From: Bacteriovoracia bacterium
Lineage (GTDB): Bacteria > Bdellovibrionota > UBA1018 > JBFWNL01
Assembly (NCBI GenBank): GCA_050251055.1
Contig: JBFWNL010000006.1
Coordinates: forward strand, 64,001 to 128,000
Direction: 5' to 3'
Length of the DNA: 64,000 nt
Part shown: piece by piece, positions 24,408-61,587 of the stretch
Layout: each line of letters starts with the position of its first letter
Position numbering within the stretch: the first letter of the stretch is position 1
Program-made: the position numbers and the translations under genes
The notes under the pieces: model-generated
Seen by the model: the letters and a program-made list of their open reading frames with translations, nothing else
What the model was told of the DNA's origin: nothing
Databases searched by the model: none

Positions 24408-25913
24408 ATGCGTATGTTTCAACTTCCAAGGATGGCGCTCGTGCTGGCGGCGATGTTGGTCGCGCCGGCCGCGCTCGCTAACGGTTTCTATAAACCCGGC
24501 GAAGTGATCGTTAAGTACAAGAACAACATCGTGCGCACGAATGCCGTGATGACCGAAATGTATAATGACGTCGGCATTCAGAGCGTGAAGTATTTCAACG
24601 GCATGATGAGCGACTTCGAGCAACTCATCTTAAAGCCAGGCGTCTCCGTGCAAGACGCGGTGAAGAGCCTGGAGCAAACTGGCTTGGTCGAATACGCCCA
24701 GCCGAACTACCTTCTTTTTACCCCCGAAGTGCAAAGCCAGCTGTTGAAAGCCATTCAGCAAGCTAAGAAGAAACAAGAAGCTCCGCCTTGCATCATTCCC
24801 GGCATTCCGTTCCCTCCTGGTTGTGAAGATGGTGGCGGCGGAGGCGGTGGTGATGTTCCTTGCATCATTCCGGGTATCCCATTCCCTCCCGGCTGCGTTG
24901 ACGGCGGCGACGGCGGTGGTGGTGGCGGAGGCAATCCTCCCGCTGAACGCCCGAAGGTAGAAAATCCTCCGGCCGAAGGCAGCCCGGTGGCCGACCCTGA
25001 CAACGCTAAGGCGTGGGGTTTGGAAAAGATTCAAGCGACCTCGGCTTGGAAAGAATTCCCCGGTGACCGCAAGTTCATCGTGGCCGTGATCGATACCGGT
25101 ATCGACTATAACCATAAGGACTTGTCCTTGAACGTGTGGAGAAATCCGAGCCCGACCAACAACGACGTGGTTGGTTTCGACTTCATTCACAATGACGGCC
25201 TCCCGTACGACGACCAAGGTCACGGTACCCACTGCTCGGGTTCTATCGGTGCGGTCGGGGAGAACGGTTTCGGTATCTCGGGCGTGTCCCAGAAGGTGTC
25301 GATCATGGGCTTGAAGTTCCTGTCCTCCTCGGGCCAGGGCTCCACGGCCGATGCCATCAAGGCCATCGACTACGCGATTGCCAAGGGTGCCCGCGTGCTC
25401 TCCAACAGCTGGGGTAGCATTGGCGCCGATCCGGATAACAATGTCCTCGAAGAAGCGATCAACCGCGCGGAAAAAGCCGGCGTGCTCTTCGTGGCGGCGG
25501 CCGGTAACGGCAACCAGTTCGGCATGGGTCAGGACAACGACTCCAGTGCTCAGCGCAGCTATCCCGCTTCCTTCACGACCCCGAACATTATTTCGGTGGC
25601 CGCGACGGACAAGAACGACGGGCTGGCTTCGTTCTCGAACTACGGGAAGAAGTCCGTGCACCTCGGCGCTCCGGGCGTAGGCGTATACAGCGCCGCTCCG
25701 GGCAGCAAGTACGCCACCCACGACGGTACGTCGATGGCGTGTCCGCATGTGGCGGGCGCGGCGGCCTTGCTCTGGTCGAAGCACCCCGACTGGGATTACA
25801 AGAAAGTCAAAGAAGTACTCATAAAGACGACCGATCCGGTGGCGAGCTTGGCAAACAAGTCCGTGTCCGGCGGGCGACTGAATATCCTGAAGGCTATCAG
25901 TTTCAAGGAGTGA
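24408..25913 (+). CDS. Secreted S8 subtilisin-like serine protease
   Basis: Signal peptide and propeptide; VIDTG, HGTH, AAGN, GTSMACPHVAG. Confidence 0.95.
   Translation: MRMFQLPRMALVLAAMLVAPAALANGFYKPGEVIVKYKNNIVRTNAVMTEMYNDVGIQSVKYFNGMMSDFEQLILKPGVSVQDAVKSLEQTGLVEYAQPNYLLFTPEVQSQLLKAIQQAKKKQEAPPCIIPGIPFPPGCEDGGGGGGGDVPCIIPGIPFPPGCVDGGDGGGGGGGNPPAERPKVENPPAEGSPVADPDNAKAWGLEKIQATSAWKEFPGDRKFIVAVIDTGIDYNHKDLSLNVWRNPSPTNNDVVGFDFIHNDGLPYDDQGHGTHCSGSIGAVGENGFGISGVSQKVSIMGLKFLSSSGQGSTADAIKAIDYAIAKGARVLSNSWGSIGADPDNNVLEEAINRAEKAGVLFVAAAGNGNQFGMGQDNDSSAQRSYPASFTTPNIISVAATDKNDGLASFSNYGKKSVHLGAPGVGVYSAAPGSKYATHDGTSMACPHVAGAAALLWSKHPDWDYKKVKEVLIKTTDPVASLANKSVSGGRLNILKAISFKE
24786..24896 (+). repeat. 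Intragenic tandem repeat of PCIIPGIPFPPGC (2 copies) with Gly linkers
   Basis: Copies at 24786-24824 and 24858-24896 encode identical peptides and differ at 7 synonymous codons. Confidence 0.9.
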
Positions 25914-25942
25914 TCCTTCAGGCCAAGGAACTAGGCTAAGTG

Positions 25943-25978
25943 GAAGGGGGAAGCCGCATCCGTGCAGCTTCCCCCTTC
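25943..25978. terminator. Long GC-rich hairpin between the convergent subtilase and dksA units
   Basis: GAAGGGGGAAGC...GCTTCCCCCTTC inverted repeat; on the minus strand it extends to 16 bp around a CGGA loop. Confidence 0.75.
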
Positions 25979-26175
25979 TCGTTTTCGTGCTACCACGACA
26001 CTGACTGCTCGCCGCTGCCTGAACCGGGACCTATCCATGGTGGGTTCAAGTGGGCGATCGGCCATCCTTGGCCAGTACTACGAGTCGGGCACCCCATCCT
26101 TGGTGTCCCCCCATTGAGCCCCGCGACCCCTCGCGTGACCCAAACCCTAATTGCCCCCTAACAAAATCATTGAAC
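25943..26175 (-). ncRNA. Candidate CsrB/RsmZ-like CsrA-binding RNA (sRNA or dksA 3' UTR)
   Basis: Four hairpin-loop motifs on the minus strand: CAAGGATG (26095-26102), CAAGGATG (26063-26070), CATGGATA (26032-26039), CACGGATG (25957-25964); ends uncertain. Confidence 0.55.
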
Positions 26176-26179
26176 TGAC

Positions 26180-26593
26180 TTAAGCGATCCGCAGATTGAT
26201 CTTCTTGCCGATGCTCTTGTGTTTGTGACCGTCGGCATGCACCTGCTCGCGCCGTTCCTGATCTTCCTTGCAGTTCAGGCACAGCGTGGTGGTCGGCCGC
26301 GCTTCCAAGCGTTTAAACTCGATGTCCTCTTCGCAATCCTGGCACAATCCGAACTTGCCCATCCGGATGCGGTTCAGGGCTTCGTCGATCTTCTTGATGA
26401 ACAAAGCTTCCCGGTTGCGCAACCGGATGCGCATGGATTGTTCCAGATCGGAAGAAGTCAGGTCGACTTCATCTTTTAGATCTTCCGTGTGGACCTGGAA
26501 GTTTGCGTCCAGGATTTCCTGCGTGTACAAAAGATCCTTCTTTTGTTTCTCGAAATGATGCTTGAACTTCTCTATCGCGTGAGCGTGAAGCAT
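26180..26593 (-). CDS. dksA: DksA/TraR family transcription factor, copy 1 (tip DEVDLT)
   Basis: RE..I.KI..AL.RI..G.FG.C..C.EDI...RL.ARP...LC..CK zinc finger; AAGGAG SD 7 nt before ATG 26593. Confidence 0.92.
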   Translation of the reverse strand: MLHAHAIEKFKHHFEKQKKDLLYTQEILDANFQVHTEDLKDEVDLTSSDLEQSMRIRLRNREALFIKKIDEALNRIRMGKFGLCQDCEEDIEFKRLEARPTTTLCLNCKEDQERREQVHADGHKHKSIGKKINLRIA

Positions 26594-26627
26594 AGATGTA
26601 CTCCTTCTTCCCCAGGGCAAGCTGGGC

Positions 26628-26670
26628 GACACATCCCGTGTCTCCGCCGGTGACACAGATCCCTCGTGTC
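26628..26670 (-). promoter_or_regulatory. Two repeated GACAC-stem hairpins with GGA loops in the dksA copy 1 leader
   Basis: GACACGAGGGATCTGTGTC (26652-26670) and GACACGGGATGTGTC (26628-26642) on the minus strand. Confidence 0.6.
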
Positions 26671-26722
26671 TTGGCTTGTTGACTTCAGTTGTTTAATGGA
26701 CCGATGGAACGAAAAGAACCGA

Positions 26723-26797
26723 CTAGCGTCGCGTAGCCCAACGGGCTTGCGCGGTTAGTGGTAGGAAACGACGTGGTTGTTGGTCTGAATAACGCAT
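26723..26797 (-). CDS. Candidate leader peptide/uORF MRYSDQQPRRFLPLTAQARWATRR (24 aa)
   Basis: AAGGGGGT SD-like motif before ATG 26797; TAG at 26723-26725; 3' half overlaps a GC hairpin. Confidence 0.4.
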   Translation of the reverse strand: MRYSDQQPRRFLPLTAQARWATRR

Positions 26798-26854
26798 ACT
26801 GACCCCCTTGGAAGGTTGGTGACTCCCCGGTCAACCTTCACGGAAGTAAGATAG

Positions 26855-26871
26855 TGCGAGAGACATGCCAA
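26855..26871 (-). promoter_or_regulatory. Sigma54 (-24/-12) promoter candidate
   Basis: TTGGCATG-TCTC-TCGCA with GG-N10-GC spacing, close to consensus TGGCACG-N4-TTGCW; A/T tract just upstream. Confidence 0.6.
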
Positions 26872-27105
26872 AGGTAGTTACAAAAAAAAACCAAGGAATT
26901 TCAAGGAACGACTGGAAATCATGCCCTAAAACACGCTCTGGACGGGCATTTTCGACGCCACTTTCGGAGGAAAAATGACGAATTTTTTACCACCAGGGCC
27001 AGAGTGAAACTGAAATGCGACAAATTGCGGCGCCGTCCCGGCCGAAGGAGGTCCGAGCTCATTCGGAGAAGAGGCATTCTGCTCCGGTAGCACGGGACGC
27101 AGGTA

Positions 27106-27516
27106 CTATTTGGTGGCCTTCGAGAATGTCTCGCCCAAGCTCTTGTGGCGTTGACCGGCCGCGCTCATGATCTCCATGCGCTCTTCCTCTTCCTTGCAGG
27201 AAACGCAAAGAGTAGCGGTGGGGCGGGCCTGGAGACGGCGGAACTCGATGTCTTCGCCGCAGGACTCACACTCGCCGAAGGTGCCTTCGTCGATTCGGCG
27301 GAGAGCTTCGTCGACTTTCTTGATGTAAAGGGTTTCACGGTTGCGCAGACGCATGCGCATGGATTGCTCGACGTCGGTCGTGGCCTGGTCGAGTTCGTCC
27401 AGACGGTCGTCCGTGTTTACGTTGAAATCATCGCGGATCACGCGATCGTTGTAGAGGAGCTCGCTGCGTTGGGTTTCAAAAATGCGTTGGAACTTCTTGA
27501 GCGTTACTTTGTTCAT
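27106..27516 (-). CDS. dksA: DksA/TraR family transcription factor, copy 2 (tip DELDQA)
   Basis: DxxDxA tip and CxxC...CxxC zinc finger; clearly paralogous to copy 1. Confidence 0.93.
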   Translation of the reverse strand: MNKVTLKKFQRIFETQRSELLYNDRVIRDDFNVNTDDRLDELDQATTDVEQSMRMRLRNRETLYIKKVDEALRRIDEGTFGECESCGEDIEFRRLQARPTATLCVSCKEEEERMEIMSAAGQRHKSLGETFSKATK

Positions 27517-27538
27517 CGTATCCCCCTAATTTCCGTGG

Positions 27539-28123
27539 CTATGTTCTCAAATCACGAATCACTAACTCGCTTACGGCCTGCAAGGTTTCCATCACGCCCA
27601 CGCCTCGACTGGCGATCGCCTCGAAGTGGGGACGTTTCGCGGCGTTAAAGGTGGCTTCCATTTCTTGCACGGAAACCACGCCCTTCACGTCGCGCTTGTT
27701 ATATTGGAAAACCACGGGCAGCCGGTTGATGTCATAACCGTGCCGCTCGAGGCTTTTCTCCAGCAGTTCGTAACTTTCGATATTGGCGCTCATGCGCTCT
27801 TCCTGGCTGTCGGCGACGAAGACGAGGCCGTCGATCCCTTTGAGGATGAAGTCGCGCGCGGATTCGTAAAACGTCTGGCCAGGGATAGAAAAAATGTGGA
27901 AGCGGGTCTCGAAGCCATTCATGACCTCGCCCACGGAAAGGGGCAAGAAATCGAAGAACAGCGTGCGCTCGTTCTCGGTGCTGAGCGAGGTGAGCTTGCC
28001 ATGCTGTTTCGAGTCGGTGTGGTCGTAGATATACTGGACGTTCGTCGTCTTGCCACTGAGGCCGGGACCACAGTAGGCGATCTTCAAAATCAGCTGCTTG
28101 GAGGCGTGGTTGACGAAGCTCAC
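27539..28123 (-). CDS. mglA: MglA-family small Ras-like GTPase
   Basis: KI.Y.GPGLSGKTTN, RTLFFDFLP, PGQ, L.G.DG.VFVADSQ, QYNKRD. Confidence 0.9.
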   Translation of the reverse strand: MSFVNHASKQLILKIAYCGPGLSGKTTNVQYIYDHTDSKQHGKLTSLSTENERTLFFDFLPLSVGEVMNGFETRFHIFSIPGQTFYESARDFILKGIDGLVFVADSQEERMSANIESYELLEKSLERHGYDINRLPVVFQYNKRDVKGVVSVQEMEATFNAAKRPHFEAIASRGVGVMETLQAVSELVIRDLRT

Positions 28124-58967: not shown

Positions 58968-60020
58968 TTGAGCCAAGCCGAAACGACGCAGACGGGTTTC
59001 CCGGCGGGGAAGAAACTCGAGAAGCTTTTGGAGCTTCGCACGTCCGGAAATATTTCCGAACTTTTGTCCTCCGTGCTTTACGAACCGATCGAAGATCTGT
59101 TCCAACGTCCGCGCAAGGAGTTCCGCGGGCAGATGGTGGAGCTGGGTTTCGCGTTGGCCGACGGCCCGGGCTCGCATCTCAAGCTCACCGCCGAAGAAAA
59201 AAAACTCTGCGCCTGCGGCGCGAAGATCTTGGAATCCCTGCACGCGGGCTCGCTCGTGGTGGACGATATCCAGGACAACAGCAAGGTTCGTCGCGGTAAA
59301 GAGACCCTGCACCTGCGCTACGGGCTTCCGATGGCGCTGAATGCGGGCAACTGGCTTTATTTCTGGCCCATGCAGATCATCCGCGAAGCCGGCCTCAGCG
59401 CCGAGATTGAGTTACAGCTTTACCAGCTTTGCCACCGTACCTTGATCCGCGCCCATTACGGTCAGGCGCTTGACGTGGGTATTCCGGTCGATACGCTGCC
59501 GCAGAAAAAAATTCCGTCCGTTTGCATGGCTTCGCTTGAGCTCAAGAGCGGCGCCCTCATGGCGCTCGCGCTCACCATTGGTGCGACGCTGGGTAAGGCT
59601 TCGGCCGAGCGCATCGATGCGCTCGACGAGTTCGGTCACCGCTTCGGCATCGCGCTGCAGATGTTCGATGACCTGGGCAACCTGAAGGCGCGCCCCACGA
59701 AAAGCCCCGAGGCGCTCAAGCAGTTCGAAGATCTCTACCTGCGCCGCCCCTCCTGGGTGTGGGTCGTGGCCGCCGAAAACTTCCCGGCGCCCGTTTTCAA
59801 GGCTTTCCTGCACGCCGTTCAGCAATTACCGGACGAGTCGTACCTCGCGGAATGGCTCAAGGCCAATCCGCTGCGCGACATCGGTAAACGCAAGGCGAAG
59901 GACTTCCTGATGCAGTCCTTCAGGAAGCTGGAAGAACATTTCGAGATGGAACCCGAGTTCCACGCGGCGCTCAAGATTCTCAAAGAACAAGTGGAAAGGC
60001 TGATTGGTGCATATGAGTAA
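58968..60020 (+). CDS. crtE: Polyprenyl (GGPP-type) synthase
   Basis: H.GSL.VDDIQD.S..RRG, GQALD, KSG, LQMFDD; lies within the crt operon. Confidence 0.82.
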   Translation: MSQAETTQTGFPAGKKLEKLLELRTSGNISELLSSVLYEPIEDLFQRPRKEFRGQMVELGFALADGPGSHLKLTAEEKKLCACGAKILESLHAGSLVVDDIQDNSKVRRGKETLHLRYGLPMALNAGNWLYFWPMQIIREAGLSAEIELQLYQLCHRTLIRAHYGQALDVGIPVDTLPQKKIPSVCMASLELKSGALMALALTIGATLGKASAERIDALDEFGHRFGIALQMFDDLGNLKARPTKSPEALKQFEDLYLRRPSWVWVVAAENFPAPVFKAFLHAVQQLPDESYLAEWLKANPLRDIGKRKAKDFLMQSFRKLEEHFEMEPEFHAALKILKEQVERLIGAYE

Positions 60021-61587
60021 GAAAGCAGCGGTAATTGGCAGCGGTTTTGGTGGGTTGAGCGTGGCGATTCGCCTGCAGGCGGCCGGCTTCAAAACCACCA
60101 TTTTTGAAAAGCGCGATCTGCCCGGCGGCCGCGCCTACGTCTTCAAACAGGACGGTTTTTCGTTCGACGCCGGTCCGACCGTGATCACGGCGCCCGAGTG
60201 CATCGACGAGCTTTTTAATATCGCCGGCAAGGACCAGAGCAAGTACGTGAAGATGGTCCCGGTGATGCCGTTCTACCGGTTGCTTTTCGATGACGGCTAT
60301 AAGTTCGATTATTCCAACGACGACGAACAGCTCTTTTCGCAAATCGGCGCGAAGAACCAGCGCGACGTGGAAGGTTACAAGCGCTTCTTGAAGTATTCGG
60401 AGGAAGTCTTCGAACAAGGCTATACGAACCTCGTCCACGTGCCCTTCCTGAACTGGTGGAGCATGATCCGGGTCGCGCCGCAGCTCATGCGCTTGCAGTC
60501 GCCACGTTCGGTGTTCTCGATGGTCGCGAAGTTTATTAAGGACCCGCATCTGCGTACGGCGTTCAGCTTCCACACCCTGCTCGTGGGCGGCAACCCGTTC
60601 ACGACCTCGTCGATCTACACGTTGATCCATTTCCTCGAGCGCAACTGGGGCGTGCACTTCCCGATCGGCGGCACGAGCGCGCTGGTGAACGCTTTGGTGA
60701 AGCTGTTCCAAGACATCGGTGGCACCGTGAAGTTCAACGCCGAGATCGACGAGATCACGACCGCGAATGGCGCCGTGACGGGCGTGAAGCTGAAGGACGG
60801 TACGATCGAAAAATTCGACGCCGTGGTTTCTAACGGTGAGATCATGCACACTTATAAAGATCTCCTGCGTAAGGAGCCGAAGCTCGATTCCACGCGCCGC
60901 TCGCTCGCGCGCAAGGATTACACGATGTCGTTGTTCCTGATTTACTTCGGCACCGACCGCAATTGGGACAATCTTTCGCATCATAATATCATCTTCGGGC
61001 CTCGCTATAAGGAGCTATTGAAGGACATCTTCGTGAACAAGAAGTTGGCCGATGACTTCTCGCTTTACCTGCATAATCCGACCGTCACCGACCCCTCGCT
61101 CGCGCCTGCGGGCAAGCACGCCTATTACGTGCTCGCGCCGGTACCGAACCTGGGCGATTGCGATGTCGACTGGGACCAGGAAGCGCCGAAATATGCCGAT
61201 CGCATCCTGACGTATCTGGAAAGCAAGTACATGCCGGGCTTGAAGAAGAGCATCGTCAGCCAGCGCATTGTCACCCCGAAGTACTTCGAGAAGGACCTCA
61301 ACTCGCACTTGGGTGCGGCCTTTTCGCTCACGCCGAACCTATTGCAGAGCGCTTTCTTCCGTGCGCATAACCGCGACGACAAGATCAAGGGCATGTACGT
61401 GGCGGGCGCGGGTACCCACCCGGGCGCCGGCGTGCCGGGCGTGATCAACTCCGGCAAGGCCACGGCGGGCCTCGTGATCGAGGACTTCGCGGGCCACTTG
61501 GGTAAGGCTTCGGGCGCCACGCACGCGGGCCCGGCGCATACTCGCCGTCCAGTCGAGACCGGCCGCTCTCCCGAGGCGATGCAGTGA
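60013..61587 (+). CDS. crtI: Phytoene desaturase CrtI
   Basis: IGSGFGGL, PGGRA, FDAGPTVIT, LLVGGNPF, GAGTHPGAGVPGV. Confidence 0.97.
   Translation: MSKKAAVIGSGFGGLSVAIRLQAAGFKTTIFEKRDLPGGRAYVFKQDGFSFDAGPTVITAPECIDELFNIAGKDQSKYVKMVPVMPFYRLLFDDGYKFDYSNDDEQLFSQIGAKNQRDVEGYKRFLKYSEEVFEQGYTNLVHVPFLNWWSMIRVAPQLMRLQSPRSVFSMVAKFIKDPHLRTAFSFHTLLVGGNPFTTSSIYTLIHFLERNWGVHFPIGGTSALVNALVKLFQDIGGTVKFNAEIDEITTANGAVTGVKLKDGTIEKFDAVVSNGEIMHTYKDLLRKEPKLDSTRRSLARKDYTMSLFLIYFGTDRNWDNLSHHNIIFGPRYKELLKDIFVNKKLADDFSLYLHNPTVTDPSLAPAGKHAYYVLAPVPNLGDCDVDWDQEAPKYADRILTYLESKYMPGLKKSIVSQRIVTPKYFEKDLNSHLGAAFSLTPNLLQSAFFRAHNRDDKIKGMYVAGAGTHPGAGVPGVINSGKATAGLVIEDFAGHLGKASGATHAGPAHTRRPVETGRSPEAMQ

Follow-up and report, generated by a model that had tools for sequence, protein, structure and literature searches.

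A candidate CsrA-binding array of GGA-loop hairpins in the 3' tail of a dksA paralogue from a FliW-encoding lineage of the Bdellovibrionota

In the accessible sections of a published account (PMC7652899), the RNA antagonists of CsrA are assigned to the Gammaproteobacteria and the protein antagonist FliW to other motile bacteria, FliW being absent from the Gammaproteobacteria and fliW being anti-correlated with BarA-UvrY, the system that drives the sponge RNAs. The locus described here is found in a stretch of 64,000 nt from a Bacteriovoracia bacterium of the phylum Bdellovibrionota (contig JBFWNL010000006.1, positions 64,001 to 128,000), referred to as the window, in which the predicted mRNA of a dksA paralogue, dksA#2, ends in an array of four hairpins that expose GGA in their loops. 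Judged from its sequence, this array is probably new, in that a GGA-hairpin RNA of the CsrA-titrating type would be attached as a 3' tail to a dksA paralogue, in a lineage that has FliW.

The best-known sponge RNAs, CsrB/CsrC and RsmX/RsmY/RsmZ of the Gammaproteobacteria, resemble the tail in their several GGA loops with CsrA-type flanks, their strong terminal hairpin, and the presence of a cognate CsrA, and the terminal hairpin found in the relatives of the window is a Rho-independent terminator, as in the sponge RNAs of the CsrB/Rsm type. On the other hand, the array is here the tail of a dksA mRNA and not a free-standing gene, it has no match to these RNAs in sequence or covariance, and its transcription unit carries a sigma-54-type motif, not a GacA/UvrY box (GacA/UvrY itself was not searched for). 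CsrB also has many CsrA sites, as against the four of the dksA#2 tail. Given this, the label "CsrB/RsmZ-like", under which the first-pass annotation of the window had introduced the array, is appropriate to the architecture, with its several GGA loops, but not to family membership, for which no covariance model gave a match.

Decoys of CsrA or RsmA that derive from parts of mRNAs are described, in the available extracts of the respective papers, as FimR2 in Escherichia coli (PMC9723502), RsmU in Xanthomonas (PMC7694677), and RsmW in Pseudomonas aeruginosa (PMC4950607), and the tail would be comparable to them as a piece of mRNA for which CsrA binding is predicted. As in the 3' untranslated region (3' UTR) decoys of the FimR2 type, it comes immediately after a stop codon, in the coding orientation, and no other gene follows in that orientation, whereas all three described RNAs belong to the Gammaproteobacteria, are unrelated to the tail in sequence, and, as far as these extracts go, are not located behind dksA.

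One other comparison is provided by the CsrA-FliW-flagellin circuit of Bacillus subtilis and Campylobacter jejuni, where the flaA mRNA titrates CsrA (PMC4894983; PMC7652899, in their accessible parts). The likeness lies in a FliW-type CsrA encoded in a flagellar operon, in GGA hairpins in the flagellin leaders, and in an mRNA that acts as the RNA partner of CsrA, which is a prediction in the present case. In that circuit, however, the RNA partner is the leader of a target, while here it would be a multi-site array in the 3' tail of a gene for a non-flagellar regulator.

Within the same phylum, the accessible part of Karunker et al. 2013 (PMC3627812) reports eight unexplained attack-phase small RNAs in Bdellovibrio bacteriovorus HD100, three of these APsRNAs having FliA promoters, and that of Lambert et al. 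2010 (PMC2797640) reports the expression of the dksA gene Bd3519 in the attack phase. Compared by their description, APsRNA1-7 are, like the proposed RNA, structured and unexplained, and they are abundant, although no link to the tail is shown. A location of APsRNA7 close to Bd3519 would be a guess drawn from the numbering of the locus tags. No description of a CsrA-binding RNA in the Bdellovibrionota was found in the literature, nor any paper describing a dksA-tail array, and the Rfam models returned no Csr or Rsm match either in positions 25000-27600 of the window at E-values up to 10 (three chance matches only) or in 19 loci of relatives at E-values up to 1, all of which is in keeping with the initial view of an undescribed RNA.

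The array occupies a gap of 266 nt (25914-26179) between two convergent genes, and its predicted hairpins are listed in Table 1. Folding to the minimum free energy (MFE) gives seven hairpins on the minus strand, four of which (H1 to H4, together spanning 163 nt, 25943-26105) have GGA in the loop, versus none of the six hairpins on the plus strand. The high-affinity consensus of CsrA is A-N-GGA-U-G, and all four loop sites fit ANGGAU(G/A), as AAGGAUG twice, AUGGAUA, and ACGGAUG; their GGAs are unpaired with ensemble probabilities of 0.87-1.00, and are separated from each other by 32, 31, and 75 nt. In the full-region MFE structure, H1 takes the form of an inner stem of 3 bp, closed by an AGGA loop and extended by outer pairs. 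H4 contains a U-G pair (25966 with 25955) that corresponds to a C-A mismatch on the plus strand, where the fold leaves it open. The four hairpins and the minus-only U-G pair were thus recovered exactly where the first-pass annotation had placed them.

The stop codon of dksA#2 is at 26182-26180, and H1 begins 75 nt past it. The convergent orientation of the next gene rules out that the array is a leader on its own strand, and, as no minus-strand gene follows the gap, any RNA read from it in the dksA sense would be a 3' tail, which fits the suggested origin from a 3' UTR.

Counting hairpins is unconvincing by itself, because loose GGA hairpins, i.e., those with a stem of at least 4 bp and a loop of 4-9 nt, are common throughout the genome, with 33,824 cases (4.5 per kb per strand); from 2,034 starting positions, at least four of them are found within 170 nt. 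The same region shuffled by dinucleotides reaches four GGA loops in only one of 400 trials, with 222 of the 400 giving none. The motif ANGGAU(G/A) has 2,420 sites on the two strands of the 3.77-Mb genome, and the tail is its sole cluster of at least four within 170 nt, while 11 other clusters (eight with three such sites, and three obtained with the looser (A/C)NGGAU(G/A)) fold into structures with 0-2 GGA loops each. Folding energy does not discriminate between the strands (z = -3.0 on the minus and -3.5 on the plus strand). Taken alone, then, the window is suggestive, but not compelling.

A repeat element was also considered and rejected, given that the 10-mer common to H1 and H2 is not enriched (3 occurrences in the window versus 3.77 expected, and 13 in the genome). 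The 266-nt region is present once in the genome, and a DNA search of 60 genomes from its order gave nothing beyond a single chance match of 22 nt. The sequencing runs on record for the organism include no RNA run. Contigs from two DNA sequencing runs, which are possibly the source of the assembly, are identical to the window and have no variants, so that they offer no covariation at the population level.

The comparison with relatives follows the DksA#2 gene, which has orthologues in 61 of 61 genomes of the order, the window's own included, with the sampled relatives belonging to other families and genera of this order. (Relatives of at most 51% identity, L006-L020, which a protein search with DksA#2 found in genome and metagenome contigs, were not used in the comparisons.) The first 300 nt past the best dksA orthologue were folded for 29 loci, including that of the window (L021), one locus being dropped as too short, and GGA was found in 74 of the 206 loops on the dksA sense strand versus 7 of the 214 on the antisense strand, while shuffles of these regions gave averages of 0.0-1.15 GGA loops per locus. 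A held-out set of 19 further loci, which had played no role in the formation of the array hypothesis, shows GGA in 55/140 sense and 12/141 antisense loops, which brings the sum of both sets to 129/346 versus 19/355.

An internal control is provided by nine loci with two dksA copies on the same strand, in which GGA loops are found in 2/59 cases after the upstream copy and in 32/77 after the downstream one. In the window itself, one of eight loops has GGA after the upstream dksA, in comparison with three of eight (300-nt fold) or four of seven (exact region) after the downstream copy. At least two GGA loops are present in 37 of the 47 loci from relatives, i.e., in 16/16 of family f11, 18/20 of f4, 1/1 of f3, 1/2 of f6, 1/6 of f2, 0/1 of f12, and 0/1 of f8.

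The arrays of the relatives begin 18-60 nt past the dksA stop codon, and have up to seven GGA loops with a strong terminator at the end. The sequence logo of the 129 GGA loop sites from all loci has A or C at position -2 in 95% of the cases, U at +3 in 58%, and G at +4 in 72%, and resembles CANGGAUG, which the first-pass annotation had named as the high-affinity site of CsrA. The array is very probably a real and conserved feature.

The paired positions also covary. The nine sequences of genus g11, which are 56-93% identical, were aligned and folded with RNAalifold into a structure of eight helices, in which five loops keep their GGA unchanged and the stems vary. This structure has 50 pairs, with 97.2% of the cells paired and 17 of the 50 pairs changed on both sides, and none of 500 shuffles matches the observed percentage paired, the count of double changes, or the covariation score; the exception is the number of further pair types, which is no higher than in the shuffles (367 of 500 reach it). 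When the partners are slid by 1-3 columns, at most six double-changed pairs are obtained, and several conserved U-G pairs fit the dksA strand only. An RNA structure is under selection in these relatives.

The g11 arrays close with a 15-bp helix, which has a conserved GGA loop and is followed by a U-rich tail. Two loci of family f6 (L029 and L023) end in hairpins whose core can be aligned with that of H4, the outer stems being different, and these two loci are GC-rich and have no clear U tract, as is the case in the window. Position, strand, number and type of loops, a terminal GGA hairpin, and an upstream promoter motif are the five features that the window has in common with its relatives. 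The interpretation given in the first-pass annotation is partly supported, and each of its proposed checks that lends itself to computation gave a favorable result: the minus strand, which it took to be functional, is the sense strand of dksA, on which the GGA loops of the relatives are also found, and orthologous regions of the same order provide strand-specific arrays with covariation.

The protein that would bind the tail is encoded once in the genome, by a csrA gene of 74 aa that matches the Pfam CsrA family with 90.9 bits and has the usual N-terminal and HREE motifs. It adjoins fliW in the order flgK-flgL-csrA-fliW, so that both of the genes whose presence had been marked for confirmation are there. 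csrA is found in 59 of the 61 genomes of the order (again with the window's own), the two misses being genomes that are 64% and 75% complete, and a phyletic correlation between csrA and the array is uninformative, given that csrA is near-universal in the order. Four of the six flagellin leaders (L100-L105, contigs C4 and C7) place a hairpin with a GGA loop 20-50 nt ahead of the Shine-Dalgarno sequence GGAG, as is classical for flagellin mRNAs that CsrA represses, and for this reason the CsrA circuit looks intact.

The spacer between flgI and flgJ (approximately 330 nt; L107:1166-1494 minus, contig C14 at about 59790-60118) has three GGA-loop hairpins followed by a long GC-rich hairpin, one of the GGA hairpins having many G-U pairs that form on the sense strand only. 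This spacer may be a second candidate for a CsrA-binding RNA or decoy in the genome.

The reading favored here is that the tail binds CsrA and acts as its decoy. The binding itself is likely, as far as sequence can tell, given that the four ANGGAU(G/A) hairpins show the shape and sequence bound by CsrA proteins, while the function as a decoy, taken as a whole, has about an even chance of being correct. The transcription unit would start at a putative sigma-54 promoter and comprise a long leader, dksA#2, and the GGA tail, from which processing would perhaps leave a stable RNA about 170-240 nt long. Once this unit is induced, the tail would take up CsrA, lower the amount of free CsrA, and relieve its targets, among which the flagellin mRNAs are likely to be included, because hairpins of a similar kind are found in their leaders. 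Two sites that are tens of nt apart can be bridged by one CsrA dimer, and, given the distances between the GGAs, the capacity of the tail would be around two CsrA dimers.

The tail would act beside the protein antagonist FliW and independently of it. According to the accessible part of PMC7652899, FliW acts on CsrA allosterically and non-competitively, and for this reason the two inputs need not compete. The connection of Csr with DksA also has a precedent in E. coli, in which, according to the same source (PMC7652899, as available), CsrA represses dksA post-transcriptionally, and DksA together with ppGpp activates csrB/C. The broader proposal, that an order of the Bdellovibrionota has a second, RNA-based antagonist of a FliW-type CsrA in the tail of the mRNA of a sigma-54-driven dksA paralogue, with a possible second decoy in the flgI-flgJ spacer, is put forward tentatively, as somewhat less probable than its opposite.

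A number of points weigh against the decoy function. With four sites only, titration would need high abundance, and the stem of H1 is weak, with 3-4 bp. The absence of a U tract after H4 on the minus strand means that transcription might continue antisense into the protease gene, and H4 may exist chiefly as the terminator of that gene. The window is not alignable with most of the relatives, and its homology to them is argued from position, architecture, and a single hairpin core, while the motif used in the genome-wide test, ANGGAU(G/A), was chosen after the data had been seen. The relatives are not independent, so that the counts overstate significance and are given as counts and not as probabilities, and the loci of families f2, f8, and f12, although of the same order and with csrA present, mostly have no array. 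In 30 genomes of family f14, which belongs to another class of the phylum, no arrays follow the best DksA-like matches (GGA in 8/179 sense versus 5/180 antisense loops), the regions being more AU-rich, which lowers the baseline, and the DksA identity being 33-50%, at which orthology is doubtful.

The main rival is that CsrA controls dksA#2 in cis, altering through the tail, and perhaps through the leader, the stability, 3'-end formation, or translation of the mRNA, while the CsrA pool is not meaningfully titrated. This is rather unlikely as the sole function, although it is compatible with a decoy and does not exclude one. The dksA#2 transcript would itself carry the array, just behind its stop codon here and in the relatives, the leader also has possible GGA hairpins, CsrA represses dksA in E. 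coli (PMC7652899, accessible part), and four sites make a small sponge, but the known cis action of CsrA occurs mainly at leaders and start sites, not at 3' tails, and the up to seven GGA loops and strong terminator of the relatives resemble a stable multi-site RNA. It is improbable, to a slightly greater degree, that the tail is a structured 3' end without CsrA, which would serve to shield the mRNA from exonucleases, to end transcription of the two convergent genes, or to bind some other protein that recognizes GGA loops. H4 would make a good terminator on the plus strand, with its 16-bp stem followed by four U, and both strands fold better than their shuffles. However, neither protection nor termination needs GGA in the loop, and yet GGA is invariant in the five g11 loops while the stems co-vary, the loop flanks reproduce the CsrA-type consensus, and the GGA enrichment is strand-specific and absent after the neighboring dksA paralogue.

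The frequency of loose GGA hairpins (4.5 per kb per strand) could also suggest that a GC-rich spacer, or a repeat similar to the repetitive extragenic palindromes (REP), happens to form GGA hairpins. This is very improbable, and largely refuted already, by the single shuffle in 400 that reaches four loops, by the uniqueness of the motif cluster in the genome, by the lack of another genomic copy of the region and the mere 13 occurrences of the H1/H2 10-mer, and by the occurrence of the same architecture at the same place in 37 of the 47 loci of relatives. It is hardly credible that the plus strand is the functional one, with UCC loops in the 3' UTR of the protease mRNA, even though this strand folds well (z = -3.5) and has the U-rich tail of H4, given that the U-G pair of H4 turns into a C-A mismatch on it, that the enrichment in relatives tracks the dksA strand (129/346 sense versus 19/355 antisense), and that the U-G pairs of g11 are found in the sense orientation only.

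If the decoy function of the tail is correct, a single transcript would deliver both a factor of the stringent-response type and relief from CsrA, and the tail would count as one of the first cases of an RNA decoy for CsrA beyond the Gammaproteobacteria, alongside FliW. A conserved, co-varying GGA array in a FliW lineage would show that the two modes of antagonism can occur side by side and that RNA decoys have more than one origin. The fusion of the tail to dksA also recalls the E. coli circuit of CsrA, dksA, and csrB/C, which would here be hard-wired into one transcript, and the tail is a concrete, testable entry point in predatory bacteria.

The ends of the putative transcript can be described in more detail. 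The 3' end of the minus-strand RNA is probably H4 in the model, and on the plus strand this hairpin probably doubles as the terminator of the convergent protease gene; there is no U tract after H4 on the minus strand, a run of four U follows it on the plus strand, and a scan for terminator-like sites in the array region returned none on either strand. The tail does not fit a plain intrinsic terminator, in which a U tract follows a GC-rich stem on the transcribed strand. At the other end, of 30 loci from the order, 14 have the motif class of dksA#2 in the sense orientation upstream of the array-bearing dksA, and none of the 30 has it in the antisense orientation; all 14 have arrays. The sigma-54 pattern has 116 matches in the genome in a looser form and 43 in a stricter one, many of the strict matches being located 30-130 nt before open reading frames (ORFs) that encode proteins with signal peptides. 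This suggests a large sigma-54 regulon, as predicted from pattern matches, and rpoN is present. No sigma-70-like site was returned by a scan of positions 25500-27000, and the array may alternatively have a promoter within the coding region.

A run of nine T is found approximately 12 nt upstream of the sigma-54-type motif (26871-26891, minus strand). A weak match to the PreQ1 riboswitch at the same positions on the plus strand (E = 1.7, 18 bits versus a cut-off of 39) was rejected as a chance match to the A/T run.

Two possible hairpins of 5 bp in the dksA#2 leader, at 26670-26652 and 26642-26628, could show GGGA loops, while the MFE structure prefers an alternative pairing of their inner arms into one central hairpin that hides these loops, the segment 26628-26670 containing four copies of one 5-nt arm. 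Immediately ahead of its Shine-Dalgarno sequence, the leader may have an alternative fold that is sensitive to CsrA. In the leaders of the orthologues, GGA is found in 28/125 sense versus 1/123 antisense loops, a sense count that is inflated by Shine-Dalgarno sequences.

Table 1. Features of the dksA#2 locus, with positions in the window (hairpins and their pairing are predicted)
Feature	Position	Strand	Description
Subtilase (S8) gene	24408-25913	plus	ORF list and Pfam; convergent with dksA#2
H4	25978-25943	minus	16-bp terminal stem; loop CGGA; motif ACGGAUG; GGA 25961-25959
Hairpin without GGA	25985-25998	minus	5-bp stem, GUAG loop; predicted fold
H3	26047-26021	minus	5-bp outer and 3-bp inner stem; loop AUGGAUA; GGA 26036-26034; P(unpaired) 0.99
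H2	26073-26060	minus	5-bp stem; AGGA loop; motif AAGGAUG; GGA 26067-26065; P(unpaired) 0.87
H1	26105-26090	minus	4-bp stem; motif AAGGAUG; GGA 26099-26097; P(unpaired) 1.00
Hairpin without GGA	26122-26135	minus	5-bp stem, GGGG loop; between the dksA#2 stop codon and H1; predicted fold
dksA paralogue #2	26180-26593	minus	137 aa and stop; downstream copy of the tandem pair; Pfam DksA_N and zf-dksA_traR
dksA#2 leader	26594-26854	minus	long; Shine-Dalgarno GGAG at 26604-26601
Sigma-54-type motif, GG-N10-GC	26870-26855	minus	pattern match; 277 nt upstream of the dksA#2 ATG; putative transcription start
dksA upstream paralogue	27106-27516	minus	Pfam DksA_N and zf-dksA_traR

The tandem dksA paralogues are approximately 52-54% identical and are kept across the order (26180-27516 in the window, and loci L038, L026, L030, L040, L041, and L047). 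A third dksA-like gene, in convergent orientation, is found in genus g11, and the array there sits between two dksA-type genes that face each other. Upstream on the minus strand, the window also has a gene for a small Ras-like GTPase and recR. The ORFs of 44, 73, and 51 aa within the gap belong to no Pfam family, and, given that GGAUG contains AUG, spurious starts are to be expected among these small ORFs.

Finally, the pro-region of the subtilase (approximately 24750-24960, plus strand), ahead of the S8 domain, contains a Cys/Pro-rich segment that is directly repeated, with a run of glycines after each copy.

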